A stretch of 64,000 bases of DNA. It comes from Pecten maximus (Eukaryota). Location: positions 14,880,001 to 14,944,000 of the forward strand of contig NC_047028.1 in the NCBI RefSeq assembly GCF_902652985.1. Direction: 5' to 3'. Both the position numbers and the translations under genes were made by a program. How positions within the stretch are numbered: the stretch's first letter is position 1; each line of letters opens with the position of its first letter. Shown piece by piece: positions 33 to 59,515 of this stretch. Under the pieces are notes generated by a model. It saw nothing but the letters and a program-made list of their open reading frames with translations, had not been told where the DNA came from and did not search any database.

Positions 33-3000
33 CTGCATGTAAGCCAGCTAAAAAAGCAGCCCCGAGACTAGTTATGTCAGCTCGTTGTTTGGCTCGGTCA
101 ATCACCTGACCAGTAAGGTCAGAGATTAACTGCATCAGGAAATTGTTATTACATACTCCACCATCAGCTCTACAAATACAGGACAGACATTTTAGCATGA
201 TTAGAAGTTTACCTTATAGTATCGCAGAGAAGTGGAATAACAAATCTAATTTTAATTTGATTTCTGAATCAACACTGCAATATGTGTATCTTAATTTTCA
301 TCAATAAAAAAAAAACTATTTTATCATATATGTGCCAGCTGGAACATAGACAAATTGTAGCTTACATAACAGGGAAGCATAAATATATTGTTATACCTGT
401 CATAATATATTGTAACATAAATATCTATGGTGATCATGTTGTAATTCCTAATCTTGATATAATGTATTATAAATATCTATGGATGCTGTAATACCTAATC
501 CTGATATATCATAACATAAAAATCTATAAATGTTGTAATACCTACCCTATAGATGTTGTAATACCTACCCTATATAGATGTTGTAATACCTACCCTATAG
601 ATGTTGTAATACCTACCCTATATAGATGTTGTAATACCTACCCTATATAGATGTTGTAATACCTACCCTATAGATGTTGTAATACCTACCCTATAGATGT
701 TGTAATACCTACCCTATATAGATGTTGTAATACCTACCCTATATAGATGTTATAATACCTACCCTATATATGTTGTAATACCTACCCTATATAGATGTTG
801 TAATACCTACCCTATATAGATGTTATAATACCTACCCTATATATGTTGTAATACCTACCATATAGATGTTGTAATACCTACCCTATATAGATGTTGTAAT
901 ACCTACCCTATAGATGTTGTAATACCTACCCTATAGATGTTGTAATACCTACCCTATAGATGTTGTAATACCTACCCTATATAGATGTTGTAATACCTAC
1001 CCTATATATGTTGTAATACCTACCCTATATAGATGTTGTAATACCTACCCTATATAGATGTTATAATACCTACCCTATATATGTTGTAATACCTACCCTA
1101 TATAGATGTTGTAATACCTACCCTATATAGATGTTGTAATACCTACCCTATATATGTTGTAATACCTACCATATAGATGTTGTTATACCTACCCTATAGA
1201 TGTTGTAATACCTACCCTATATAGATGTTGTAATACCTACCCTATATAGATGTTATAATACCTACCCTATATATGTTGTAATACCTACCCTATATAGATG
1301 TTGTAATACCTACCCTATAGATGTTATAATACCTACCCTATATATATGTTGTAATACCTACCCTATAGATGTTGTAATACCTACCCAATATAGATGTTGT
1401 AATACCTACCCTATAGATGTTGTAATACCTACCCTATAGATGTTGTAATACCTACCCTATAGATGTTGTAATACCTACCCTATATAGATGTTGTAATACC
1501 TACCCTATATAGATGTTGTAACACCTACCCTATATAGATGTTGTAACACCTACCCTATATAGATGTTGTAATACCTACCCTATAAATGTTGTAATACCTA
1601 CTCTATATATGTTGTAATACCTACCCTATAGATGTTGTAATACCTACCCTATATAGATGTTGTAATACCTACCCTATATATGTTGTAATACCTACCCTAT
1701 ATAGATGTTGTAATACCTACCCTATATAGATGTTATAATACCTACCCTATATATGTTGTAATACCTACCCTATATAGATGTTGTAATACCTACCCTATAT
1801 AGATGTTATAATACCTACCCTATATATATGTTGTAATACCTACCATATAGATGTTGTAATACCTACCCTATATAGATGTTGTAATACCTACCCTATATAG
1901 ATGTTGTAATACCTACCCTATATAGATGTTGCAATACCTACCCTATAGATGTTGTAATACCTACCCTATAGATGTTGTAATACCTACCCTATACAGATGT
2001 TGTAATACCTACCCTATATAGATGTTGTAATACCTACCCTATAGATGTTGTAATACCTACCCTATAGATGTTGTATTACCTACCCTATATAGATGTTGTA
2101 ATACCTACCCTATAGATGTTGTAATACCTACCCTATAGATGTTGTAATACCTATCCTATAGATGTTGTAATACCTACCCTATAGATGTTGTAATACCTAC
2201 CCTATATAGATGTTGTAATACCTACCCTATAGATGTTGTAATACCTACCCTATAGATGTTGTAATACCTACCCTATATATGTTGTAATACCTACCCTATA
2301 GATGTTGTAATACCTACCCTATAGATGTTGTAATACCTACCCTATAGATGTTGTAATACCTACCCTATAGATGTTGTAATACCTACCCTATAGATGTTGT
2401 AATACCTACCCTATATATATGTTGTAATACCTACCCTATATAGATGTTGTAATACCTACCCTATATATGTTGTAATACCTACCCTATAGATGTTGTAATA
2501 CCTACCCTATATAGATGTTGTAATACCTACCCTATATATATGTTGTAATACCTACCCTATAGATGTTGTAATACCTACCCTATAGATGTTGTAATACCTA
2601 CCCTATATATATGTTGTAATACCTACCCTATATAGATGTTGTAATACCTACCCTATAGATGTTGTAATACCTACCCTATATATGTTGTAATACCTACCCT
2701 ATAGATGTTGTAATACCTACCCTATAGATGTTGTAATACCTACCCTATAGATGTTGTAATACCTACCCTATATAGATGTTGTAATACCTACCCTATATAT
2801 GTTGTAATACCTACCCTATAGATGTTGTAATACCTACCCTATATAGATGTTGTAATACCTACCCTATATATATGTTGTAATACCTACCCTATAGATGTTG
2901 TAATACCTACCCTATATATATGTTGTAATACCTACCCTATAGATGTTGTAATACCTACCCTATAGATGTTGTAATACCTACCCTATAGATGTTGTAATAC

Positions 3001-6000
3001 CTACCCTATAGATGTTGTAATACCTACCCTATATATGTTGTAATACCTACCCTATAGATGTTGTAATACCTACCCTATAGATGTTGTAATACCTATACCC
3101 TATGGATGTTGTAATACCTACCCTATATATATGTTGTAATACCTAATCCTGATATATTGTATACCGCAGACTATATCTTACCTGATCATATATGAGAGTT
3201 CCACTTTGGATTCTTTAAGAATGGCTTCATAGAGAATTTTGAACCTAAATGCAATTGATTCCAGTAATGCCCGCACAAGATGAGCCTTAGTAGTGGTGGG
3301 TTTTACTCCGATGATGGAAGACGCTGCCTTGTCATCATTGATTGGGGCCTATCAACAAAACCAGTACAATGTAATGACAATGATTTTCAATCAACCAGAG
3401 ACAAAGGAATACTTTTCAAATTATTCTATCAGAAAATCAGAGATTATTTTGGAAAACTCCATTGGCTAAAAATTATGACATTTACATGTTATGAATAAAA
3501 GAGAGTCATGTCCACAATGTTTCCAACAGAATTATTTTTCATTTCATGAATCATAATTCTAAAGTTCTTTGACCAGTCGCAATGATATCTAATATTGTCA
3601 AAGTACATGTCTACAATCTACAATCTACCTCTTGCTTAGCATTGGTAAGAAAGGACAGAGGCTTGACACATTTCTATGACCCAGAATGAAAACCTAACCC
3701 CAGGGTCCGGCCCCTAGATCACTTATTATTATAATAAGTGATTTAGGGTTTAGACCCAGGGAGATAATTTTTCATGCTGGGTCATAAGAACGTGCCATGC
3801 TCCCCTGTGTCAGAAAACTCTTGATCAAGTGTACATATATAGTTACCTGGAGTCCACTAAAAGCTGCCACGATACACACCCTGTCAGAATCTGAAACACA
3901 AAAAACATCATTATCTTAATGATTTAAAATGGAAAAAAACAAAGCAAATTGAATTATTGAATTTAGTAATAATCATACATTTCTTAATTGTTAAATATAT
4001 CTCAAAACTGCATATTTCACCTCTCATAACTTTGTTTTTTGATAAATTTGCTAGTTCATGCCTGCTGTGAAACTTCAGAGCTGCTTGAGGGGGCTAGTCA
4101 AGCATGACCAGAAAGTGGACGTTGTAAGCGTTATCCTAGGGGAAGTGAAACGGAAGTAAAATTCCAAACATGAAATATACTCATAGTATAAATGCGTAGC
4201 TGAGGGCAAAATTGGCTGTATAAATCTGACCTTGGCAGAGAGAGAAGTAAAAAATGTCTGGAAGTAAAAAATGTCTGTAAGACATTAATGTCCTAACTGC
4301 CACTTGATACCCGAAATACAGCAATATGAGAAACATACTCATTATCAACCTTTCTAAAAAATTTGATGAAAATCTATGAAAAAGTTGAAGCTTTTCTGTA
4401 TATAGCAAAAGTACCCTTGGCCATAATGTCCCCTCCTAGCTGTGTTGACAGGTGTCATTGGTGATGCAGAAGACTCTTACTCTACTGGACCACGTACCTG
4501 GTCTTATTCTCCCTGTACATTGTCAAACGTCTCCATGCATATCCATATCTTATGTTGATATTTGTCCTTTTTTTATAATTTTGAGTTTGAGTTATGGTTT
4601 CATTATTTTGCTGGTATTCTTTGTTGTTTTTTGTGTGGAGGTTTTATGGGGGTGGGAATAGGGAAGCTTACAAAGTTGATCTGTCATATTCTACCAACAA
4701 TGGATCAATCAGTCCATCTAGCATAAAGAGCAACGAGATCTTTGTTTATCACAGCCATTAGACAGGTGCTCAATGCTTTGGTCAAAATCTAGATATTGCC
4801 AAGTGAGGCAGTAAAGGAAAGAAACAGGAGTACCGAGGGTGCAACAACAAGTACACTGGGTATTACTAAAGCAATACATGACCCCTATTGGCCCCCGCTA
4901 AATACGATAACAGTTACCTTGACCCCAAACACCCTGAAACTCAAATTTGATCTATAGCTACTTATACTGAAGTTACATACCAACTTTCACTAACAGACTA
5001 AGCCCCAAGTATCACTGAAAAGTCCTAACATCTTTATCATGATTTTTATTTTTATTCATGATTCGGCACACACTTTATCTATTAATAAGTTTGTTTGTTA
5101 AGGTGCCTATCATTGTGTGCCTTTTATGTTAATTCTTGTGTCCTTATCTCTACCTACAGAACTTATAATTACCTGGTACTGACTCGGCTATCCTTGCTGT
5201 GTCGGACACATCCTCAAACAGACCTGTACAGAAAGGATAAGTATGAAGCTACGTCTGTCAAATATACAGGTATGGAAGTCATACAGGTATATTCCTGCTT
5301 CGGTAATTCTATAACAATGACATTGTGTTATAACATACCTGTAGACTTGGCCCAATCTATAACAATGACATTGTGTTATACCATACCTATAGACTTGGCC
5401 CAATCTATAACAATGACATTGTGTTATACCATACCTATAGACTTGGCCCAATCTATAACAATGATGTGTTATAACATACCTATAGACTTGGCCCAATCTA
5501 TAACAATGACATGTTATAACATACCTATAGACTTGGCCCAATCTATAACAATGACATTGTGTTATAACATACCTATAGACTTGGCCCAATCTATAACAAT
5601 GACATTGTGTTATAACATACCTATAGACTTGGCCCAATCTATAACAATGACATTGTGTTATAACATACCTATAGACTTGGCCCAATCTATAACAATGACA
5701 TTGTGTTATAACATACCTATAGACTTGGCCCAATCTATAACAATGACATTGTGTTATAACATACCTATAGACATGGCCCAATCTATAACAATGATGTGTT
5801 ATACCATACCTATAGACTTGGCCCAATCTATAACAATGACATGTTATAACATACCTATAGACTTGGCCCAATCTATAACAATGACATATTATAACATACC
5901 TATAGACTTGGTCCAATCTATAACAATGATGTGTTATAACATACCTATAGACTTGGCCCAATCTATAACAATGACACTGTGTTATACCATACCTATAGAC

Positions 6001-9000
6001 TTGGCCCAATCTATAACAATGACATTGTGTTATAACATACCTATAGACTTGGCCAATCTATAACAATGACATGTTATAACATACCTACAGACTTGGCCCA
6101 GTCTATAACAATGACATTGTGTTATAACATACCTATAGACTTGGCCCAATCTATAACAATGATGTGTTATAACATACCTATAGACTTGGTGAAATCTATA
6201 ACAATGACACTGTGTTATAACATACCTGTAGACTTGGCCCAATCTATAACAATGACATTGTGTTATAACATACCTATAGACTTGGCCCAATCTATAACAA
6301 TGACATGTTATAACATACCTACCTATAACAATGATGTGTTATAACATACCTATAGACCTGGCCCAATCTATAACAATGACATGTTATACCATACCTATCT
6401 ATAACAATGACATTGTGTTATAACATACATATAAACTTGGCCCAATCTATAACAATGACATTGTGTTATAATATACCTATAGACTTGGCCCAATCTATAA
6501 CAATGACATTGTGTTATACCATACCTATAGACCTGGCCCAATCTATAACAATGACATTGTGTTATAACATACCTGTAGACTTGGCCCAATCTATAACAAT
6601 GATGTGTTATAACATACCTATAGACTTGGCCCAATCTATAACAATGACATTGTGTTATACCATACCTATAGACCTGGCCAACTCTATAACAATGACATTG
6701 TGTTATAACATACCTGTAGACTTGGCCCAATCTATAACAATGACATTGTGTTATAACATACCTAAAGACATGGCCCAATCTATAACAATGATGTGTTATA
6801 CCATACCTACAGACTTGGCCCAATCTATAACAATGATGTGTTATAACATACCTATAGACTTGGCCCAATCTATAACAATGATGTGTTATAACATACCTAT
6901 AGACTTGGCCCAATCTATAACAATGATGTGTTATAACATACCTATAGACTTGGCCCAATCTATAACAATGACATTGTGTTATACCATACCTATAGACTTG
7001 GCCCAATCTATAACAATGATGTGTTATAACATACCTATAGACTTGGCCCAATCTATAACAATGACATTGTGTTATACCATACCTATAGACCTGGCCCAAT
7101 CTATAACAATGACATTGTGTTATACCATACCTATAGACCTGGCCCAATCTATAACAATGACATTGTGTTATAACATACCTATAGACTTGGCCCAATCTAT
7201 AACAATGACATTGTGTTATAACATACCTACAGACTTGGTGCAATCTATAACAATGATGTTGTAATATAACATACCTATAGACTTGGCCCAATCTATAACA
7301 ATGACATTGTGTTATAACATACCTATAGACTTGGTCCAATCTATAACAATGACATTGTGTTATACCATACCTACAGACTTGGCCCAATCTATAACAATGA
7401 CATTGTGTTATAACACACCTATAGACTTGGCCCAATCTATAACAATGACATGTTATAACATACCTACCTACATCTTCGCTAGCCAAGGCTTCTGATTACG
7501 TTACACTACACGAACCCTTGGCGGATATAGGCGTCAGTTCTGGCCCTCTAGCGGAGATTCAAAATTACCACTCTTTACGCATGAAATTATCGACCAATCA
7601 AAACGAGCGTTACCGATTTACTTCATCTGAGATGTTTACAAACACATGTGGAGGCTTGTGTCATTTTGATGAGATATGTGATCAATGACTTAAATAGATT
7701 GATCAAACACTGCGAATGTTTCCTTAAAGATAGTTCGTGTCTGTATATAGGTAAAATGCCATGACATAGTCGACATTGTAGCTCTGTACTGGGTGCCGCA
7801 ATTTTTGTTTACTGCGAAACCAAGCCTGAACGTAAAACACGATTTGATTGGGTACCCTAGGATTCCAGGGCGTGACGGTTTGAACACGACTATATCCGCC
7901 AAGGGTTCGTGTAGTGTAACGTAATCAGAAGCCTTGGCTAGCGAAGATGACCTACCTATAACAATGACATGTTATAACATACCTACCTATAACAATGACA
8001 TGTTATAACATACCTACCTATAACAATGACATGTTATAACATACCTACCTATAACAATGACATGTTATAACATACCTATAGACTTGGCCCAATCTATAAC
8101 AATGCCTGTATCCGTTATGGCCCCTTCTGCTACATACACCAGTTCATCCTTTATCTTCCAGCCAATTTGAGGATACAGACCTAAAACATGGGATATAGTA
8201 CAGTTATAAAAAGTGCCGAGAGAAAACGGTTATAGGAAGTATATACATTATTTACTACGATATTAAATGTAAGAAACTCCGGAATATCATGAACATGAGT
8301 CTGTCTGTTTGTACAGTTAATATGTTTGTGTGGTTTATTTGGTGGGTTAATCACCCTGTAAACATCAGTTTTGGTAGGAATCTCCTGTAGCTACTTAACG
8401 GTACATCACCATACCAAACATCACCTACCATATACTATCCACACCAATAATTGTATAGCATCTCTCCCAGAGACATGACCATTACAGTTAGGACTGTCTG
8501 TGATCTAAGCCTCCTGATATAGCTAGTAATGAGATCAAATTACAATATATCTAACATAATTATTGATTCTCACTTGGACAAACAATACATGTGCACATCA
8601 TATTTGCCAGATATCTTCAAAATTCATCACATTATTAATCAAACTTTAAGATAATAATAAGTTATTAAATTGTTAGATGAAACTGGAAACTATCAAACCT
8701 GCAACAGAAGCATGAGCATAGCTGCCTGTATTCACATCAACAAAGGTTCCTGTTCCCATGGTGCACTTCATATCTCCAACGTCATAGCAACACTCCCCAA
8801 ACATGGCCGACATCTGGTCAGATATCTGGGTAGAGAATCATAAAGAACATCACGTCAACAAATAGTTATATTATGACATAATTGAAAATAAAAAAAACAG
8901 CATTTACTAAATTTATTATTCTAGGCCACATATTTGAAAAAGATATTTCCCAATTTGTTATTGAAAGCAATTGTAAAATTAGCTCTTTGATCCTGATTGT

Positions 9001-12000
9001 TACAGTTAAATAATAATCATAAGCATTTTACAAGAATTACAATGAATTACATGTACACATGTATATGTCTCACCTGTCCCACTTTGTCAGTATAGCTAGT
9101 TTTAAGCAAACTCCACAGTTCACTAAAATATCAGTATCTCTTTAAAAAAACAACCAATTGACTTGCACTTAATAGCTTGGAAGCAGCCTGTATGCATTAT
9201 AGACATGTGTATATATTGATGCATTGCAAAATAAATATGTTATCTAATTTTGCAAAATTACTAATTCTGCAAATTCAACTAAATATGTCATTTTTACCCA
9301 AAAAATCACTCTTTCTGAAAAGAGTTTTTACCTAAAACTACAGCAAAGAATTTAAAATTCATGTGATCTGTTGGTTGTGTTTAGATGTCCATACTACAAT
9401 GCAACTACATATATCACAGGTTTGGTTGGGAAAACATTCAATTTGATACTTTTCGAGAAACTGAGCCAAACACAAAACTTTAAAGTTCAGATTCCAAGCA
9501 TTCCTAACTTTCAGAGTCACTGGACCATAAACTGTGGATAAAATTCCATTAAAGAAGGGTGTGTTGAAATGTCCACTACATGATCTAACTTTATACCAAG
9601 TTTGATTAAATTTGTCGGAAAAGTAACACCACTTTCTCACTTCAGGACTTACATGTGTCACAGGCAAGACAAAAATTAGGTAATTTTATAACTTCAGATG
9701 TTTTCTTTTTTTTTTTTTTAGATATCTGCTGAATGAATTGAGTGCTCACCATAGCTGTGATGGGTATAGCCGCACCAAACAGTGAAGGGTCAGTTTTTCC
9801 AAACAGGCAACTGAAGCAAAATAGATAATATAGTCTACAGGCGTATCACATTATGTTCTAATTTGAACTTTCAGAAGAAATCACTTGATAGGAACATGGA
9901 CATGAATAAGCTTTTTTTTATATACAGGTCAAGAAATACAGCTTTAATCCTGCAATAAGACTCGACCAAAACATGATTAATCTTATTCTGACTCTTTGAG
10001 TGAGCCACATATGTTAGTACATTTTGTTTTAATTGTACTAAACATAAATACATGTAAGATTATGATGGCATGGTTACCATATATGGGCTTATTTTATTAT
10101 ATCTTTTGTGATTTTGAGATTTACCAGTGTTTTTATAATATAACCTATTACAAATTGATTTATTTAGTAAAATTCAATTATCTTATAATCAACCGTAAAA
10201 GCAGTGTAATCATTTTTACCATACTCCGAAAATGAGGGTGAGACATGTTATATTCCAAACATAAACAATTTTCACTGTACCAGATGTAGAGACATACCTC
10301 GTATCTTTGATCTCAGGTAGAATGTTCATTGGAATGTTTAGAAGGTTACATACTATAGAACTCCATTCTACCTGTAAGTAAACACATACTACAACATCTT
10401 ACAGGTACGTCAATGGAGAATTACTATTGGTCAGTGTGGAAAAATGGGGGTCGCCCCTCCCATCCCCTTCCCGAACACTCAATCTAATCAAAAGGAATTT
10501 AATACATCAAAGACATACAGCATATTTTACATTTTAAATCACTGGCCATGTAACCACAGGTGAAGATCTGAGGTGAACAGTTTGACATTCCATACCCATG
10601 TTGGTCTGAGGGCCACAGTTTGACATTCCATACCCATGTTGGTCTGAGGGCCACAGTTTGACATTCCATACCCATGTTGGTCTGAGGGCCACAGTTTGAC
10701 ATTCCATACCCATGTTGGTCTGAGGGCCACAGTTTGACATTCCATACCCATGTTGGTCTGAGGGCCACGGTTTGACATTCCATACCCATGTTGGTCTGAG
10801 GGCCACAGTTTGACATTCCATACCCATGTTGGTCTGAGGGCCACGGTTTGACATTCCCTAGCCATGTTGGTCTGAGGGCCACGGTTTGACATTCCCTAGC
10901 CATGTTGGTCTGAGGGCCACGGTTTGACATTCCATACCCATGTTGGTTTGGGTTTCTCGGGAAGTTGGGAAATAGGCTTGTCTTTACTGTCGTGGCTGTG
11001 TCCTCGGGCAAGAGACTTTACCCTAATTGCTCTAGATGGCATTCGCTGCGCCTCCCGTATATATTTGGTTATGTAGTCACAAACTACTACAAGGTGACCA
11101 TGCCTCAAAATGACCCTTGCTCTTAATGGGACGATAAACGCAGTAAACAAACAAACAAGCCTAAATAGACAAATGAAATTATTGAAAATTCTTAAATTAT
11201 GGCTTAAAATATAATCAGAAAGCAATACACTATTCAGAAATTGAAAAATTATTCGTCATTTCTACGATATCCCTACCCTACTAACCTGGAAAGGATCAAA
11301 TAAGCCTGTCCCACTGGCATTGGAATAGTCTGTGGCATGGACCTTCTCACCAGTCAGTTTCCATAGCAACCACGTATCTATACACCCAAACATCACCTGG
11401 TCTTCTGATGCTCTCTTCTTCAACTAAAAACAATACGTCATCTGTGTAACCTCAGACAAGTCATGTAAAAAAGATGTCTATTTCTTTGTTTTGATTGGCC
11501 TATGAAAGCTATTTATTTGCTAATGTTCATAGGGTCTTGAAATAGGTATATGTACTAACCACTACTGAAATCCAATCTTCATTGTTTAAATGTTAAACCT
11601 CAATCTACTAAAGGTGTAGTAGCAGGAGTCTTAGAAAAATGACTGACAAACAAAGGCTGAAGTGAGGGGTCTGAGAGGGGTCCAAGAGGGGTCTTAGAAA
11701 GACGATTGACAAACCTCTACTCAGAGGCTGAAGTGGACTTCTTAGAAAGACGATTGACAAACCTCTATTTAGAGGCTGTAGTGGAGATCTTAGAAAGACG
11801 ATTGACAAACCTCTATTCAGAGGCTGAAGCGGACGTCTAAGAAAGATGATCGACAAACCTCTACTCAGAGGCTGAAGTGGACTTCTTAGAAAGATGATTG
11901 ACAAACCTCTACTCAGAGGCTGAAGTGGACTTCTTAGAAAGATGATTGACAAACCTCTATTCACAGGCTGAAGCGGACGTCTTAGAAAGATGATCGACAA

Positions 12001-15000
12001 ACCTCTATTTAGAGGCTGAAGCGGACGTTTAAGAAATATGACTAACAAACCTCTATTCAGAGGCTGAAGCGGAGGTCTTAGAAAGATGATCGACAAATAA
12101 ATAATTTGTTTACCTCCTCTATGTTCTCTAGGGCCCAGATCAATCGTAGACCAACCTGTGGAAAAAAAACACCACACTTGTGTAAATCATGTACAACACG
12201 CTTATCACATTTAATATCATGGACTGAGGACTTACTCATCACAAAATTATATATTACTCTAGATCTTGGTATCTTTATAATATAGTGCACACATTAAGCT
12301 ATTTAAACAAATTTACATAATTTATATCCCATGTTTTAAGCAAAACATTTCTACCTATCATCAGTATTTCTATTGGTGTGATTTGGTGTTGATATATATC
12401 TGTTTCTTTGATTTAATATATAATTGGTCCATACAGACACATATACCAAATTTGATTGAAATCAAACTTCCTTTGGGAACAGAAATTGCACTGAAACCAA
12501 TTAAACACATCAACCAATCAGGTATCCTAAATAATCATTCATAAACAGAAATAATAAAATAGTGATCAAACCAATTAATTAGATATATCCATTCCATTGT
12601 ATAAAAATGAAAAACAGCTCAATAGGAATAAAGTTACATGAACACTTGTGTTAGGAGATAGAAACCTTGTACCTGATTTGACAGAAATTTGAGTACACTG
12701 GCTGCCAGGAATCTGGGTTGTCGAGTAAACAGATGGAGGAAAGAAGATCCTTTGTTCAAAGCCTTCAATACAAATTACTTACAGTGATTAGGTTTTTATC
12801 AAAACAAATGCTAGAAAAGAAGTTTTTAACCAAATCACTTTTCATAACATTTATGTTATGAATTTAAATAAATAGATTGAAGAAATGTATTTGTTGTTGA
12901 TATTCTGTAAAGAAATTAAGAATTAATTGACTGATTGATAAAAAGAAAGAAAACAAAAACTGAAGGCTTGTTATACAAGGATCTTAAATTACCCGTAGTT
13001 TGTATGAGTTGTTCCATGACTTGACATGGTCACTTGCTCTCAGGTCCTGCCAGGTGATGAAGTTATGGAATGGCTTCCCTGTCTCTCTGTTGGCAGATTC
13101 ATCAACATTAATAAGTGAAAGAAGACCATGCACATGTATAAGTTTAATAAGTACATGTGTTTCTAGATTACTTTCCCTTATCAAATTATTTCCATTCTGG
13201 TGTTCCTTATTTAGGGCAATTGAAAACGATCCTTTAAATTCAGGGCCTTTTCATAGCTTATCAATGAACTTTGGACCTACAAGATGTATCTAAAATTTTG
13301 ATGAAAACAAACTGTATCATGATGACTTGTAACTTGCCGGAATCAGATACATTTATTTTATGCATAAAAGTATCTTTACCTGTCCTAGGTGAAGAATGTA
13401 GATATATATATACTTTACACTTACCTGTCCCAGGTGAGAAATGTAGATATCTGTATACTTTACACTTACCAGTCCCAGGTGAGAAATGTAGATATCTGTA
13501 TACTTTACACTTACCAGTCCCAGGTGAGAAATGTAGATATCTGTATACTTTACACTTACCAGTCCCAGGTGAGAAATGTAGATAAATGTATACATTACAC
13601 TTACCTGTCCCAGGTGAGGAATGTAGATATCTGTATACTTTACACTTACCTGTCCCAGGTGAGGAATGTAGATATATATATACTTTACAGTTACCTGTCC
13701 CAGGTGAGGAATGTAGATATCTATTTACTTTACACTTACCAGTCCCAGGTGAGAAATGTAGATATCTGTATACTTTACACTTACCTGTCCCAGGTGAGGA
13801 ATGTAGATATATACATGTGTGTATATACTTTGCACTTACCAGTCCCAGGTGAGAAATGTAGATAAATGTATACTTTACACTTACCTGTCCCAGGTGAGGA
13901 ATGTAGATATCTGTATACTTTACACTTACCTGTCCCAGGTGAGGAATGTAGACATCTGTTTACTTTACAGTTACCTGTCCCAGGTGAGGAATGTAGATAT
14001 CTGTATACTTTACACTTACCTGTCCCAGGTGAGGAATGTAGATATATGTATACTTTACAGTTACCTGTCCCAGGTGAGGAATGTAGATATTTATATACCT
14101 TAATCTTACCTGTCCCAGGTGAGGAATGTAGATCTCTGGTTTGTTATCCCCATACATGTCACCTGGCTAGCAGTTATGTTAGCAGCTTAAATAATGAAAT
14201 TATACATTGTTACCGATTTCTACACATACATACCAATGTATTCTGTTACATAACAACAATAAATTTCCCTTGATATGTTGTATCAAAGAGCAAAATTTCT
14301 AGTTATATTGAACATTAGGCTGATCACATGAGTAACACAATGATAGATTACCAGGTGTAATTTCTAGCCCCACACTGAAGAACAGATAAGGTTATAAATA
14401 CTTGATAAAACATATTTTCTTTTGGTTCAAAAAATTATTTTAAAATGAAAACTGATGTTAACATTCAGCACCATATCAATCTATTTTTATATACAATAAC
14501 AAATGTATACCTCTGATAGATTCCTTGATACACTCGACAGCTTGTTGTACCAACTGATCCGGGTCTATCTCCGACCAGCGGGGCTTAGGGTATATGACCT
14601 GTATCTGTAACCATTACAATAACAAAAACTAAAACAGTGACTAGGGACATTGCCATGTTTAAAACGTTTATACATTGCCATGTTTAAAACGTTTATACAA
14701 AGTTATCACTATACACGATGATTACAATGACTCCAAATCATATCATAATCACAACATCACAATGTACTTTTAACATAAAATTATAATGAAAAATACTCGG
14801 CTACTGCTGGGGCTCTATCTATAGCTAGTGGTCACCTCTTGCTTTCCAAGCGGACATCCAAACACTTAACTAAAGGGAAATTCCTGCTTCTTAGGCTCTG
14901 TACGACAGATGGTCGTCGTCAGAGTGCCAGAGATCAGTGTAGGCAGGGTATGAATATTCGTTCTAGTAAGGTGAAAGCTGACCTTATACTCTCCACTTTT

Positions 15001-15311
15001 GCGCCTTACATTCAGATATCATGATCTTGACTACCAAATTGTGACCTCAAACCTTTTTTTTTATCTGACCTGATGATGTTCATTTTTATACTGAGGCTAT
15101 AATCTCAGATATTGCATATGTACCCACAGGTTGTAACATCGTGATCTAGGATCATGACATCATATAACCTCACCCTTTTGCTGCTAGAGCCTTTGATGCT
15201 GCCGTCCTTAACGTAGACATGGCTTCTCATGGTCGTAGTGCCGATGTCGAGAGAGATTATGTAGGGTATGACATCATCAGCCACTTGCTCCTCCGCTTTA
15301 CTAGGGTTCAT
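33..15311 (-). CDS. GK5: Glycerol kinase 5-like (FGGY carbohydrate kinase), multi-exon, 3' end outside window
   Basis: Coding exons in transcript order: 15311-15174, 14604-14511, 14185-14110, 13086-12993, 12762-12673, 12155-12114, 11423-11286, 10371-10298, 9810-9750, 8825-8699, 8180-8076, 5223-5173, 3890-3847, 3348-3182, 169-33. All GT-AG and phase-compatible. Spliced peptide has FGGY/GK motifs: [125 protein letters not shown]. The [19 protein letters not shown] segment resembles GK5 rather than GK as recalled. Confidence 0.92.
530..3145. repeat. Minisatellite, 23/25-bp unit ATGTTGTAATACCTACCCTAT(AT)AG, ~110 copies, GK5 intron
   Basis: Direct inspection. Degenerate copies extend to ~420. Confidence 0.97.
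3654..3809. mobile_element. Fold-back MITE (family shared with 20491-20687)
   Basis: Imperfect palindrome centred ~3730 (TAGATCACTTATTAT/ATAATAAGTGATTTA; TATGACCCAGAATGAAAA/TTTTCATGCTGGGTCATA). Confidence 0.7.
5308..8104. repeat. Minisatellite, 45/48-bp unit ATAACATACCTATAGACTTGGCCCAATCTATAACAATGAC(ATT)GTGTT, derived from the GK5 exon 8180-8076 3' end plus donor, interrupted by a MITE
   Basis: About 46 full units (5308-7470), the MITE, then short 31-bp variants and the genuine exon end. Confidence 0.97.
7471..7949. mobile_element. Non-autonomous DNA transposon (MITE), 60-bp perfect TIRs, 9-bp TSD (Mutator-like)
   Basis: 7471-7530 is the exact reverse complement of 7890-7949. ACCTACCTA flanks both ends (7462-7470, 7950-7958). 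Neighbouring repeat units show the empty site. Confidence 0.93.
10576..10947. repeat. Minisatellite, 38-bp unit CACAGTTTGACATTCCATACCCATGTTGGTCTGAGGGC, ~10 copies
   Basis: Direct inspection. Confidence 0.95.
10950..11158 (+). mobile_element. CORE-SINE-like fragment with (AAAC)n tail
   Basis: GCTGTGTCCTCGGGCAAGAGACTTTACCC resembles the CORE/MIR domain (GCTGTGTGACCTTGGGCAAGTCACTTAACC). 3' end AATGACCCTTGCTCTTAATGGGACGATAAAC...AAACAAACAAACAA. Confidence 0.65.
11625..12097. repeat. Minisatellite, 48-bp unit CTTAGAAAGATGATTGACAAACCTCTACTCAGAGGCTGAAGTGGACTT
   Basis: About 9 copies starting ~16 nt inside the GK5 donor at 12113. Confidence 0.93.
13375..14134. repeat. Minisatellite, 45-bp unit TTACCTGTCCCAGGTGAGGAATGTAGATATCTGTATACTTTACAC, derived from the GK5 exon 14185-14110 3' end plus donor
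   Basis: About 17 copies. The rightmost unit is the real exon end. Confidence 0.97.
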
Positions 15312-16500
15312 ACTGGCACCAAGGACTTTCTGTGAAGTTAAAATATGTCAAAAACACACATACACATATATAAATATATCAAGATGAGAATCGAATAAAT
15401 TAGCTACTGATACGAGACCTTATAGCAAGGGATACACTGTGTACATAATGAGACAATGTTAAGGGGAATTACTTATGGACATACACATGTATATGTATGC
15501 ATGAATATGTTTATTTTTTTAGATGTTTCAGTCTTTTAATTAATCTGAAAACAACCTAGCTTATGTAGCAGAACTGGACTGAACTGAAATTCTTGGTTAG
15601 AATGTACCTAGAGTATATACATCCATCTAGAGTCTGGAGGTCATTTTCTGGTCATTGCATTTTTCTTTGCCTATACTTAGGCCTAGTTGTCAGAGGAAAA
15701 TTATTCCTGGATCTACAAATAAACTTAATAATTTTATCAAATCAATAAGAAAGATAGCTTTCACTCAGCTTTCATATTATATATTATAATGGCCAACATT
15801 GTTGACTTATCAGTCAGGTTGAGAATAAAAAATGGAATATAGGCTACAGTTGTCAACTTACACTATAAAATCGTGTCCGCTGTGCCTTATCATCCATACG
15901 GTTCACAGATTATTTAGTTCATTTAAGCGGCCAGATGTATGCTGCAGCAAGGCACAAAATCTTGCTGTTGAAGAAAAAGAATATACAGTACAAATGTCAA
16001 GAACTGAATCAGCCGGAAATATAAAACTCAAGTCATAATTACAATTTTCCTGTTTCAGAAAAAGTATTTTTTATGTGTCATTGATAACTTTTAGTGTAAC
16101 ACGAGATCGGTTACAGGATATATATAAGAGGAAATTGAAAGTGTTAGCTTTGATTAGTACAAGTACCCTTGTAATGCCCATAACCATAACATGTGTAACT
16201 TTGTCCAATTAAAAACATGGGACGGCATTATCGGGCATTGAAGACGAAATAACATTTGGCACCACGGGAAAACAGTTAAACAAAACTAAAGCCACAGGGA
16301 GGGGGTAAACCGAAGTGTTCTGATGTTAATATCGCGGTAAAGCTGCATTAGTGCATAGCAATATTGTCAGAAAATACGGATTATGAGGGATGTGGACATT
16401 CAGCGACAATGCATTGTGACTAACGAACATAATACACAAATATCGGTAATTGATTAGTCAAATTTAAGTCGATTTATTCCAGTCTCGTTAACAAACTCAC

Positions 16501-16560: not shown

Positions 16561-16767
16561 GTCATGTGACAATATTACCAGAGATATTTTTACATTTAAA
16601 TTTTAGATGTATTTAAATAACATTTACCAGACGTAACAATAAATGCTTCATTTTACTTCAATATACCAATTGATATTTAAAGAAATAATTAAATTCTTAT
16701 TTGTATCAAGCATATTACTATTGTGTATAAAATTTAAATACAAGTTTATTTGCGTCCATATACGTAC

Positions 16768-16839
16768 TCCTCGGTAGTATAGTGGTAAGTATCCCCGCCT
16801 GTCACGCGGGAGACCGGGGTTCAATTCCCCGCCGGGGAG
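16768..16839 (+). tRNA. tRNA-Asp (GTC)
   Basis: 72 nt TCCTCGGTAGTATAGTGGTAAGTATCCCCGCCTGTCACGCGGGAGACCGGGGTTCAATTCCCCGCCGGGGAG. Acceptor stem TCCTCGG/CCGGGGA, anticodon loop CTGTCAC, A and B boxes, downstream T-run. Confidence 0.97.
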
Positions 16840-16840
16840 A

Positions 16841-32233: not shown

Positions 32234-35922
<3,689 letters not shown>

Positions 35923-44380: not shown

Positions 44381-48852
<4,472 letters not shown>

Positions 48853-48923
48853 TCCATGTGAACCAAAATATTACTAAATTCCCCAAAAAGCCTAATTTTA
48901 CTGAAAAATAATCTGAACTTAAA

Positions 48924-48969
48924 GGAGGGGGAGTTTGACGAGGAGGAGGCCGAGGGCGAGGAAGCATAA
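48924..48969 (+). pseudogene. Orphan beta-tubulin C-terminal tail fragment ([14 protein letters not shown])
   Basis: GGAGGGGGAGTTTGACGAGGAGGAGGCCGAGGGCGAGGAAGCATAA lies 71 nt after the copy B stop and is followed by AATAAA at 48978-48983. Confidence 0.85.
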
Positions 48970-49628
48970 TTCGCTTGAATAAAGCCATTTCAACACTCTC
49001 CGATCAGTCTATCGATACCGAAAAGTAACGTCAACGTACAATTTTATATAATACAATGAAGTAAGATCACTACGAAAAGTCGCTAAACATGGCGAAATTG
49101 GCAATCGGACAACTTCATTGTGTTCCTAAGAATCTTGCCAAACCATTGCAGATTCTGGACTACATCCAGGTTTGAAAACTATGCATGTAACTCTTGCCAA
49201 CATACATGACGTTTACCAAAAATGGGAATATCTCCACAGACTGGAAAGGAGATGTTGTAATAATCATCCAAAATTAAAAATAGGACCAAAACGATTCATA
49301 CTGGGTTGTCTTTAATACTTGTTTTTGAAATGATACCTTGTAAGGAATCTGAATATTTATAGACTTGTTCAGGATTAATTATTATGTTTACTCATTTAAA
49401 ATGTACGAAATTGCTGTATGATGCTTTAATGGTTCTTAAGGATAAGGATATGCTACATTTTAATTGTACAAAAGACGACACTGAAAAACATATCGATGCT
49501 TTAAGTAAGCTTCGTTCTTTTCCTGTCTGTTTTTAGCATTTGTTTTATATTTCTATTCTTTCGTATGTGTCCCTCTAGACAGCCGTCTTAATATGACTGA
49601 CTATTGATATCCCCAAGACACCTTTCCA

Positions 49629-53810: not shown

Positions 53811-55791
<1,981 letters not shown>

Positions 55792-58438
55792 TTCTAGTGA
55801 ACTAGTTTCTATGGACTAAATTTCAATCACTGCCGTATTAACTAATTCTTTACTCTCATTGGTCCTGCTGAGTACGGGGCTTATTTTTAGGAAATTCAAA
55901 AAAGATTTATTCATTAGGTTGACTAAGAAACAAAATGACAATATTAGATTCAAATCAAAAACAAGTAATAAAAATCAGTTGAAAGTTTGATGTGTTTTCT
56001 AGTTCTTCTTTTACGTTGGCCGAGATAGTATGTCGAAAACAACAATGGACTCGAAGACAAAAGGCTGTTATCTGGCTGGCCATCAAAGATTTTAAAGGTA
56101 ACTGCGTACACACAGTTTTGTAGTTAAGTATACAGCTCATTAAAGGTATAAATTACAATACACTGTGTCATTTTCTGGAACAGAGTTCAACAATATACCA
56201 AACCCTTTAACATTGTCTTAAATAATGCAAATCTGTGTGCAGATTCAGATGTTAAATGCGATTTTCAATGTCTGTGATACAAGTTTCTTTGTTCCTAAAA
56301 CAAAATTACTGACAATGTCCATTCCATCATGTTGACTGACCTTTGCTTGGTGACACACTAAAGTTAATATCTTAATTCCTATATTTAATAAAACATACAA
56401 ATGTTCTCGACATTATTTATTCAATGATAGCATTGTTACAACTTTGATAAAACAAAACGCATTCAATTCTAAAAATAACTCGTAATTTTCGTAATTTAAA
56501 GAAAACATACACTTGTATTTGCATGCACATCTAGATGTCGTTATAAACAATATAACACATTATATATTGTCATCAGATAATTCTTATCCTGAGATAACGT
56601 ACTATTTAAATTATGTCAGCTACATAAAGTTTAATGTATACTCGAGATCTTTACTTACAATATAACCATCACGGACAGTCAGTTTCCATTTCTTGATTGT
56701 AGCATCATTGTTTCCCCTACATACGGTTTCCAAGGGATTGTTTCTATTACCACGATTTCCGTGAAATACTACTGACGGAAAACTGATAACACACAGTTTC
56801 AACAGACGCAGAAGTAGACCATGGAAAGATTTTATGACTGATATCTTGATAGTGCGATATGAAGTCATACGTGTTCGATGTTTATTGGTATGCCTAGTGG
56901 TTCTTCTAAGACCTAGTGATTGGACCTAGATTTTCATTTCGATTGTCGTCATTAAACAGAAGACGCTTACCCTTCGGAACACCTTGTGTAAGGCTTCTTG
57001 TGTTGTTTCAATGGTCTCTTGCTATTGTATATTTTATTAATAGCTTTAACCTCGTTTTATCGATTTAAGTTACGGGTTTGCTTGAATGTCGGTATTCCTT
57101 GTTATATTATCACTAATGATGAGGAGGTAATATGAACATTTAGGTAAAGGATTGTAGAACAGATACACGTTAGAGAACACCTTTCAGTAAGGAATTATTA
57201 ATTGCTGCAGCATGATGAATATAGAACTATAATTATATTTTACAGTCATTTCATTTTTTTATGACTCCTCAGTACTGCATGGGACAAATTCTTCCAATGA
57301 GACTTGATAGATATGCTGGGTCAATAATCACTATAAATATATGTCTATATGAGTATAAAGTTATGTACCATATCAGTATTATGTCAATCTGGGATTCGTG
57401 AGTGATGCTATATATATTAACAGAAACTCGTGTCTGAAATGTTCCGATGCATATACAGATCAAAGAAAGGCGTGTGTAAAACAGGAAATGCACTTATATT
57501 TTCTATTATTGATTTTATATTTTGTATGTAAATGAAAGAATAAGCTACGAGGAATATATATATTTTTCCTCGTCTAGCAACACTGACGTGTCCTAGAAGG
57601 ATAAAACAGCTGTATTTTGGCCCTAGCATCACTTACAATTCCTTGAAGGAGAAACTAGCTGTACGATTGCCCAAACATCACTGACGAGTCCTAGAAGTAA
57701 AAAACAGCTGTAAGATGGCCCTACCAAACAACCTTACGGAAGTTTTATATTCATTACTCAGCAATTATTGAAAAAATGATTACATTTATATATAAAGGCG
57801 ATATACATTTACGTGTCACTTGTTCAACCGTTAAACGTTACAGTTGTATTACATATAAACCAAAGGCACGTACTTTCTACCTACATAGATACGCTTTTCT
57901 TACTACGTTTGATATAATTATAGGGTGTTACAGACCCTTGAATGTCAATTCATCGCAAATATTACGTTAAATCAAAATTTGGTATCACCTTGGAAGCGTG
58001 TTTCGACTGCCTTTCTAATTATCAGTGTTTCTCCTTTTTACTGTCAACAGTCTATAAGCATATCTAGTTTGAGACATGGTACTTTTGCCTTAGATTAATT
58101 CAAGTGGTCAACTCTTCGTCAATTAAAATAGCATTTCTCCATGGCAGTGAGTGTAACAAACATTAGTAATACAGGACAACCTGACACCGTGTGAGGTACA
58201 ATAATTAAATAGTAGATCCCTACCCCGTATAAAAAGCTAGCAGTAGATCGATACCCGATACCACTCCATGTCAAATAAGGTATTTAATAGATCTGATAAA
58301 TGGGACCTTAAACAAGACGGCTATGGTATGATAAAACACGTAACCAAACCTTATCTTTAATTCCTTTTATTCGCACGAACCTATATTGATAATAGTGAAT
58401 CACTGAGCCGGATCGTTGGCCGAGCTCCATAGCTTTGA

Positions 58439-58523: not shown

Positions 58524-59515
<992 letters not shown>

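Follow-up and report, generated by a model that had tools for sequence, protein, structure and literature searches.

In introns sampled from the scallop Pecten maximus, minisatellite arrays start near 5' splice sites (donors) about 2.1 times as often as expected, whereas starts near 3' splice sites (acceptors) are at expectation. The analysis began with a window of 64,000 nucleotides (the whole stretch of DNA that was analysed; contig NC_047028.1, positions 14,880,001 to 14,944,000), in which a GK5-like glycerol kinase gene carries long tandem arrays at or close to four of its donors. The first-pass annotation of this window had suggested that repeats are born or expand at exon-intron junctions. 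Array ends were therefore compared at donors, at acceptors and at random positions in a sample of the genome, and the enrichment at donors was found. There is little doubt in our view that this donor excess is real.

The sample covers 1.8 of 918 Mb and three gene families (kinases, myosins and kinesins), whose exons were located regardless of repeats by Pfam profile searches of the genome, with splice sites called by ourselves. As anchors, Pfam matches were excluded if they lay on small unplaced contigs or were near-full-domain kinase matches, as were some tandem near-duplicates, and 180 of the 194 planned 10-kb stretches were analysed. Hidden Markov models (HMMs) built on the sampled loci gave 602 exon matches and none on the opposite-strand control. 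Phase- and HMM-constrained pairing resulted in 442 introns, of which 361 in 119 loci are of high confidence and 81 fell below the confidence cut; the splice matrix was started from generic frequencies, which were then re-estimated on these introns. Tandem repeats of period at least 10 cover 22% of the sampled stretches. For the null expectation, each array found by Tandem Repeats Finder (TRF) was collapsed to one unit and placed at random within its own intron. Merging rules vary slightly among scripts, giving 163-173 arrays.

Arrays of at least three copies numbered 173 and occurred in 107 of the 361 introns. They straddled 16 donors and 6 acceptors, against 7.4 expected at each (p = 0.003 and p = 0.76), and the discordant introns were split 15:5 (p = 0.041). 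Within 50 nt of the junction there were arrays at 39 donors versus 18 acceptors, with 18.5 expected at each; this donor count was reached in 0 of 5000 permutations (acceptors, p = 0.59), and discordant introns were split 32:11 (p = 0.002). Boundary-spanning arrays are thus present at 16/361 donors (~4%) and array starts within 50 nt at 39/361 (~11%). When all 252 repeats of at least 1.7 copies are counted, 22 donors and 7 acceptors are straddled (9.3 expected), and 52 and 19 have a repeat within 50 nt (25.4 expected). In the 219 introns of at least 450 nt after collapsing, donor starts peak at -3 to +50 (21 versus a background of 6.4), and every acceptor bin holds 5-8. The excess is present in all four identity classes, and about half of it consists of arrays without a donor in their unit.

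The donor excess was stable to changes of the intron set and of the detection method. Donors outnumbered acceptors within kinases, myosins and kinesins separately, in a strict set of 270 introns (28 versus 11) and in all 442 introns (41 versus 19). TRF run on the reverse strand again gave 39 donors versus 18 acceptors, so a strand bias of the program was rejected as its source. A TRF-free k-mer recurrence test gave 16-21 donors versus 6 acceptors of 327, and HMM ends alone, which need no splice prediction, gave 83 donor versus 37 acceptor sides of 595 exons. Dilution of the null by transposons was likewise rejected, as the result was unchanged after masking 9-13% of intron sequence (51 near donors versus 26.8 expected; masking was limited to families occurring at least twice within the 1.8 Mb). 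The block bootstrap ratio of donors to acceptors was 2.0 (95% range 1.3-3.9). Microsatellites (period 2-9) were uninformative, with 16 arrays and none near either intron end.

The gene in the window that carries the original arrays is laid out as follows.

33..15897, minus strand: GK5-like glycerol kinase gene, 17 coding exons, open frame of 548 aa
15862-15897, 15174-15329, 14511-14604, 14110-14185, 12993-13086, 12673-12762, minus strand: coding exons, first set
12114-12155, 11286-11423, 10298-10371, 9750-9810, 8699-8825, minus strand: coding exons, second set
8076-8180, 5173-5223, 3847-3890, 3182-3348, 33-169, minus strand: coding exons, third set
~1.3 kb left of the window, minus strand: 17th coding exon

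The protein is 89% identical, gap-free, to the 'putative glycerol kinase 5' of Mizuhopecten yessoensis and 89% identical to a Ylistrum balloti protein. The last exon bases at 14110, 12114, 8076 and 3182 are followed by real donors, and the frame is open through all four. RNA contigs from 4 runs of 2 to 3 studies (3 runs only presumed to be RNA) cover the region 7470-13370, and their joints 8178>8697, 8825>9750, 10369>11284 and 12761>12992 all agree with the gene model; none of the contigs bridges the arrays at 14110 and 8076. A guessed exon at 9074-9139 was ruled out by the joint 8825>9750. At 12198-12700, a 437-nt contig of run X1 extends from exon into intron at a depth of ~10 versus 25 for the mRNA, possibly by intron retention or an alternative end.

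The repeats in the introns of this gene are listed below.

13376..14138, minus strand: 45-bp minisatellite, 16.7 copies (TRF)
11691..12097, minus strand: 48-bp minisatellite, 8.5 copies, starting at +16 in the intron, unit without donor
5308..8104, minus strand: 48-bp minisatellite with 31-bp variants (TRF pieces 5308-7466 and 7950-8078)
525-3145, within 405..3145, minus strand: 23/25-bp minisatellite, ~110 copies, TRF start at +36 in the intron
10577..10947: 38-bp minisatellite, 9.8 copies, mid-intron, 338 nt from the donor and 205 nt from the acceptor (TRF)
14647..14699: 25-bp two-copy duplication, ending 42 nt before an acceptor
4244-4281: two-copy duplication (TRF)
7471..7949: 479-bp miniature inverted-repeat transposable element (MITE) with 64-bp terminal inverted repeats and a 9-bp target duplication, inside the 48-bp array of 5308..8104

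All five arrays of the first-pass annotation were recovered by TRF, the MITE having been overlooked. The first-pass distances for the arrays inside the 12113 and 3181 donors (~16 and ~35 nt) agree with TRF starts at +16 and +36, and introns 170-3181 and 5224-8075 are indeed mostly repeat (~87% and ~80% array). The arrays at 14110 and 8076, described as starting on the donor itself, instead start 24-29 nt inside the exon. The array at 10576-10947, given as the sole one away from a donor, does lie mid-intron, but the two-copy duplications at 14647-14699 and 4244-4281 had been missed, as had an array just outside the window that ends 69 nt before the last GK5 acceptor.

The 45-bp unit is made up of the last 24 nt of the exon, the donor and ~21 nt of intron, so that 16 donor copies follow the real donor. 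Seven of these 16 copies read CAG/GTAAGT (slash, splice position) and score 13.5 versus 11.7 for the real CAG/GTAAGA. The 48-bp unit of 5308..8104 likewise comprises the last 29 nt of the exon, the donor and 19 nt of intron, with ~48 donor copies downstream of 8076. The arrays at 14110 and 8076 are further boundary-spanning minisatellites, an arrangement already known. The two that start at +16 and +36 are ordinary intronic minisatellites close to a donor. Their units were considered as derivatives of their exon ends and this was rejected, since the likeness is not significant (p = 0.42 for the +16 unit). The 23-bp unit had been called donor-like, and as TAGG/GTAGGT it does score 9.1 as a donor versus 11.7 for the real one, but it is no more like its own exon end than like other exon ends (p = 0.46). 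This array expanded within a 47-bp repeat that is older and still present at 405-544 and, as a remnant, near 3145-3160.

The four donor-side arrays are confined to this locus. Outside this locus the 45-bp array has no near match (69% at most), the 48-bp array of 11691..12097 gave a single genome match, and all exact genome matches of a 22-nt junction pattern of the 5308..8104 array (23/23) and of a 20-nt pattern of the 23-bp array (90/90) fall inside the respective array. This search with the four arrays, which skips very common words, found no dispersed or transposon-carried satellite family, and uniqueness to the locus indicates that the arrays arose in place. GK5 is typical of the genome, as donor-proximal arrays occur in 4/16 of its introns versus 52/361 in the sample (p = 0.19).

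The real donors at 14110 and 8076 are both followed by an in-frame TAA no more than 11 nt away, so use of a later donor would give a truncated frame. For the 8076 donor, contig X4 record 22 follows the genome as far as 8074, the point at which the intron departs from the next exon, and then extends a further 542 nt. This shows use of the first donor; as rare forms are lost from contigs, later donors may also see minor use. For 14110, the open frame and the orthologues suggest that the first donor is used as well. Among the 16 straddled donors of the sample, a stop before the next donor copy was found at 15. In the kinesin loci L084-L085, L053-L054 and L102-L103, donors are followed by 34-84 donor copies, and in L084-L085 59 of the copies outscore the real site. 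Acceptor-spanning arrays with intact upstream AG copies were seen in five cases, with up to 40 copies; in L048-L049, L133, L152 and L071 the upstream AG copies score at least as high as the real acceptor, which makes these arrays natural tests of 3' splice-site choice.

Local sequence probably contributes to the pattern. Units far from known exons have more G+C, G runs and AGGT and fewer A/T runs than background. AGGT is found in 29 of 107 mid-intron units in the sense and 20 in the antisense direction, versus ~15 and ~14 expected, and strong donor motifs in 12 and 12 versus ~9 and ~8, which is not clear. Intergenic arrays in the window (38097, 40077) also contain AGGTA. Sequence models were trained on 153 mid-intron arrays from confirmed intron interiors and are weak (area under the curve, AUC, 0.63-0.65); a first composition model was discarded, as its training arrays could span unannotated exons. 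The models predict a 1.3-1.7-fold rate in donor-straddling windows (observed ~2.4-fold), 1.0-1.2-fold just inside donors (observed ~1.9-fold), 0.85-0.96-fold before acceptors (observed ~0.75-fold) and 1.1-1.2-fold across acceptors (observed ~0.75-fold). Thus, local sequence accounts for a large share of the excess of straddling arrays but for little of the surplus that starts just inside the intron. Donor-proximal arrays were also considered as decayed straddlers, which was rejected (3/29 at p <= 0.05, with one clear case).

The reading we prefer, to which we give close to an even chance, is that minisatellites are born in place, with a modest position-dependent excess of births at donors on top of the sequence effect. 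Tandem duplications of 20-70 bp of the gene's own sequence would seed arrays in place, as the one-locus units indicate, and would be about twice as common from ~50 nt before to ~50 nt after the donor as elsewhere in the intron. The twofold enrichment of starts near donors, with background values near acceptors, is what the sample shows. Part of it, 1.5-1.7-fold of the 2.4-fold straddling excess as predicted, may be due to exon-end and donor sequence that resembles array-forming sequence (more G+C, shorter A/T runs, AGGT), and the rest, mainly starts 0-50 nt inside the intron, would reflect a higher birth rate set by position. The probable source would be transcription-linked nicks or breaks near the donor that are repaired with duplication. 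Slippage and unequal exchange, which are established as amplifying minisatellites, would then multiply the unit. Since the exon stays whole through the first copy, further copies could lie only downstream. The first donor, used at one GK5 donor, would presumably be used at others too, and a later one would meet a stop codon. Donor arrays would be tolerated because the first donor is chosen and stops precede the next copy in 15/16 cases, and the arrays would be near-neutral passengers with no regulatory role. In a wider form, which we put forward only tentatively, the ~100 nt around donors may be a germline hot zone of short tandem duplication, coupled to transcription or the spliceosome and seeding minisatellites at ~1/9 of donors in repeat-prone genomes, which would explain the repeated occurrence of donor-spanning arrays in scallops, lancelets and humans.

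Several observations weigh against the preferred reading. The enrichment is only about twofold and 117/173 arrays are mid-intron. The 50-nt cut-off was picked after seeing the histogram (p = 0.034 with a 35-nt and p = 0.006 with a 100-nt cut-off). For at least three copies, the sign test of nearer-donor versus nearer-acceptor arrays is not significant (59:47, p = 0.29), with p = 0.039 in a Wilcoxon test on log distance and a sign test of 85:56 (p = 0.018) at 1.7 or more copies. Starts at +4 to +50 alone, again for at least three copies, give 20 donors versus 11 acceptors (p = 0.11), and the bootstrap range just reaches 1 for arrays of at least five copies and spans 1 when periods are 10-25 bp or introns at least 1.5 kb long. 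Counter-examples to the donor pattern occur in the window itself: the duplication at 14647..14699 and, in the beta-tubulin intron 44438-47220, an array of 18-bp units in the middle (45287-46468) and one of 30-bp units (46837-47167) whose end is 53 nt short of the acceptor. Low-copy arrays are depleted at acceptors (1 versus 8.2 expected below three copies, 3 versus 11 expected below five), which suggests selection there, and the fixed arrays of one assembly cannot tell birth from survival. Nor did the specific causes fare well. R-loop-driven expansion was rejected because donor arrays show no G-rich sense strand, mean GC skew, an indirect test of R-loops, being 0.03 in straddling (16), -0.05 in proximal (23) and 0.06 in mid-intron arrays. 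RNA-templated or cut-site breakpoints were rejected because the 26 listed starts spread from -53 to +3 with no spike. The data thus give no link between the zone and R-loops or splicing chemistry. The idea of repeat birth at exon-intron junctions is accordingly upheld as to the doubled donor starts and the birth in place, but the R-loops, splicing-coupled breaks and pausing offered as its causes received no direct support.

An asymmetry of survival is a less likely explanation. Arrays would be born evenly along the intron, those next to any exon would persist longer since deletions removing them would also hit the exon, and acceptor-side ones would be purged as they disturb the branch point, the pyrimidine tract or the choice of the first AG, which would leave donors enriched and acceptors flat. 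The low-copy depletion at acceptors fits this, interspersed repeats avoid both intron ends and the acceptor slightly more, and first-donor choice, as described in the available text of PMC1557585, would make donor copies harmless. However, shielding and purging would have to balance out at background in each of the acceptor bins (5-8 versus 6.4), and high-copy arrays, from which most harm would be expected, show no deficit at acceptors (16 versus 12.8 expected). Nor is there a significant sign that acceptor arrays are the younger ones (median identity 91 versus 89% in donor arrays, p = 0.52); an apparent difference in a set with 6 arrays (96% versus 89%) was gone in the larger set. The existence of acceptor-spanning arrays with intact AG copies shows that acceptor duplication is not strictly purged.

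That sequence alone is responsible, with exon ends and donors seeding or sustaining arrays where pyrimidine tracts do not, and with no role of position or transcription, is improbable. The models trained on mid-intron arrays do predict a surplus at donor-straddling (1.3-1.7-fold) and a deficit at acceptor-proximal windows (0.85-0.96-fold), AGGT is over-represented in mid-intron units on both strands, and models this weak may under-predict. Yet 30 starts were seen 0-50 nt inside the intron versus 16 expected, where the prediction is 1.0-1.2-fold, and AG/GT is no commoner at straddled donors (8/16) than at the others (205/345).

Noise or an annotation artefact of a 1.8-Mb, three-family sample is a very remote explanation: the counts are small, the cut-off is post hoc and the sign test for at least three copies fails, but the tests free of splice prediction and of TRF agree, the donor-proximal repeats lie in 40 separate loci versus 15 for acceptor-proximal ones, and the HMMs had no match on the opposite strand. 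A selected function of the downstream donor copies as U1 decoys, regulators or alternative exon ends is scarcely credible, for although seven copies of the 45-bp array are nearer the consensus than the real donor and two pseudo-sites are used in human 6-16 and CBS (PMC1557585, in the portion available), units are unrelated among loci with lengths random modulo 3, a stop is reached at 15/16 straddled donors, scallop orthologues have no insertions at these junctions, and about half of the donor excess has no donor in the unit.

The MITE at 7471-7949 is young. Of 705 first-look genome candidates 40 were scored, and all 40, the window copy included, are full length with 95-100% identity. The element is very deep in RNA contigs and, from the length of its target duplication, we take it to be Mutator-like. 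A second interspersed repeat adjoins the 38-bp array at ~10950-11120, with high RNA-contig depth and loose ends. A tRNA-Asp(GTC) gene lies on the plus strand at 16767-16840, ~0.9 kb upstream of the GK5 start codon.

Read by eye, the window also holds complete beta-tubulin genes at ~32322-35922, ~44382-48853 and ~53812-55792, and a fourth at ~58527-59445 that appears to be without middle exons. None of the 9 introns checked by eye in this cluster (32322-59445) has a donor-proximal array. At 48850-48970, the 3' end of the second tubulin gene matches the stop and ~70 nt of 3' untranslated region of the first gene, and a second acidic tail with its own stop comes next, which is likely a gene conversion or recombinant end.

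Of all intron DNA, 27% is array sequence, with 5.2% in donor-proximal and 2.6% in acceptor-proximal arrays. At 5.2%, donor-proximal arrays are a minor route of intron growth and not a major driver of intron size. Nor is the route undescribed, as had been thought possible, since donor-spanning arrays are on record (PMC1557585, PMC3087553, as far as their available text goes). The interest lies rather in numbers: hundreds to thousands of natural cases in one genome make it testable whether splicing or transcription shapes duplication sites, and what lets the first donor prevail over stronger copies further down the intron. Junctions with donor arrays also call for caution from gene annotators. 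We found no donor-versus-acceptor count of arrays in the open literature that was searched, and scallop genome papers may hold related tables.

In humans, the 37-bp variable number of tandem repeats (VNTR) in F7 intron 7 and the minisatellites of 6-16, CBS IVS13, LAMIN B2 and PDGF intron 4 (Borensztajn et al. 2006, PMC1557585) have, like the arrays at 14110 and 8076, a first unit that spans the exon-intron boundary and a donor that recurs along the intron; splicing at the human loci normally takes the first donor. The F7 unit includes 4 exon bases, whereas those of GK5 include 24-29. In the accessible part of that report, only pseudo-sites with a perfect consensus shift splicing, and seven GK5 copies read CAG/GTAAGT; the human cases stand there as single loci with no frequency or donor-versus-acceptor count. 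The 'mirages' of amphioxus, in Adh3, the globins BflGb6 and BflGb9, TnC and PGBD5 (Ebner et al. 2010, PMC3087553; PMC3902484), are minisatellite-like duplications of exon-intron boundaries in a marine invertebrate, as in GK5. As far as the available sections of these two papers go, the duplications leave splicing unchanged, either boundary may be copied, their mechanism is called unclear, and the cases are treated gene by gene with no rate or asymmetry; arrays that start just inside the intron with no donor, about half of the scallop excess, fall outside these descriptions. Intron gain by tandem duplication of AG/GT proto-splice sites (Lehmann et al. 2010, PMC2891723, accessible text) also depends on short duplications in tandem by which splice signals are copied. 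In that case the duplicated stretch is exonic and makes a new intron, whereas here an existing donor is overlapped or followed and an old intron is lengthened. The new element in the scallop is a donor bias that has been measured, at about twofold, with arrays lacking a donor supplying about half of it; this bias is real in the sample and modest; boundary-spanning minisatellites, so far anecdotal, now have a measurable donor-over-acceptor bias attached to them.

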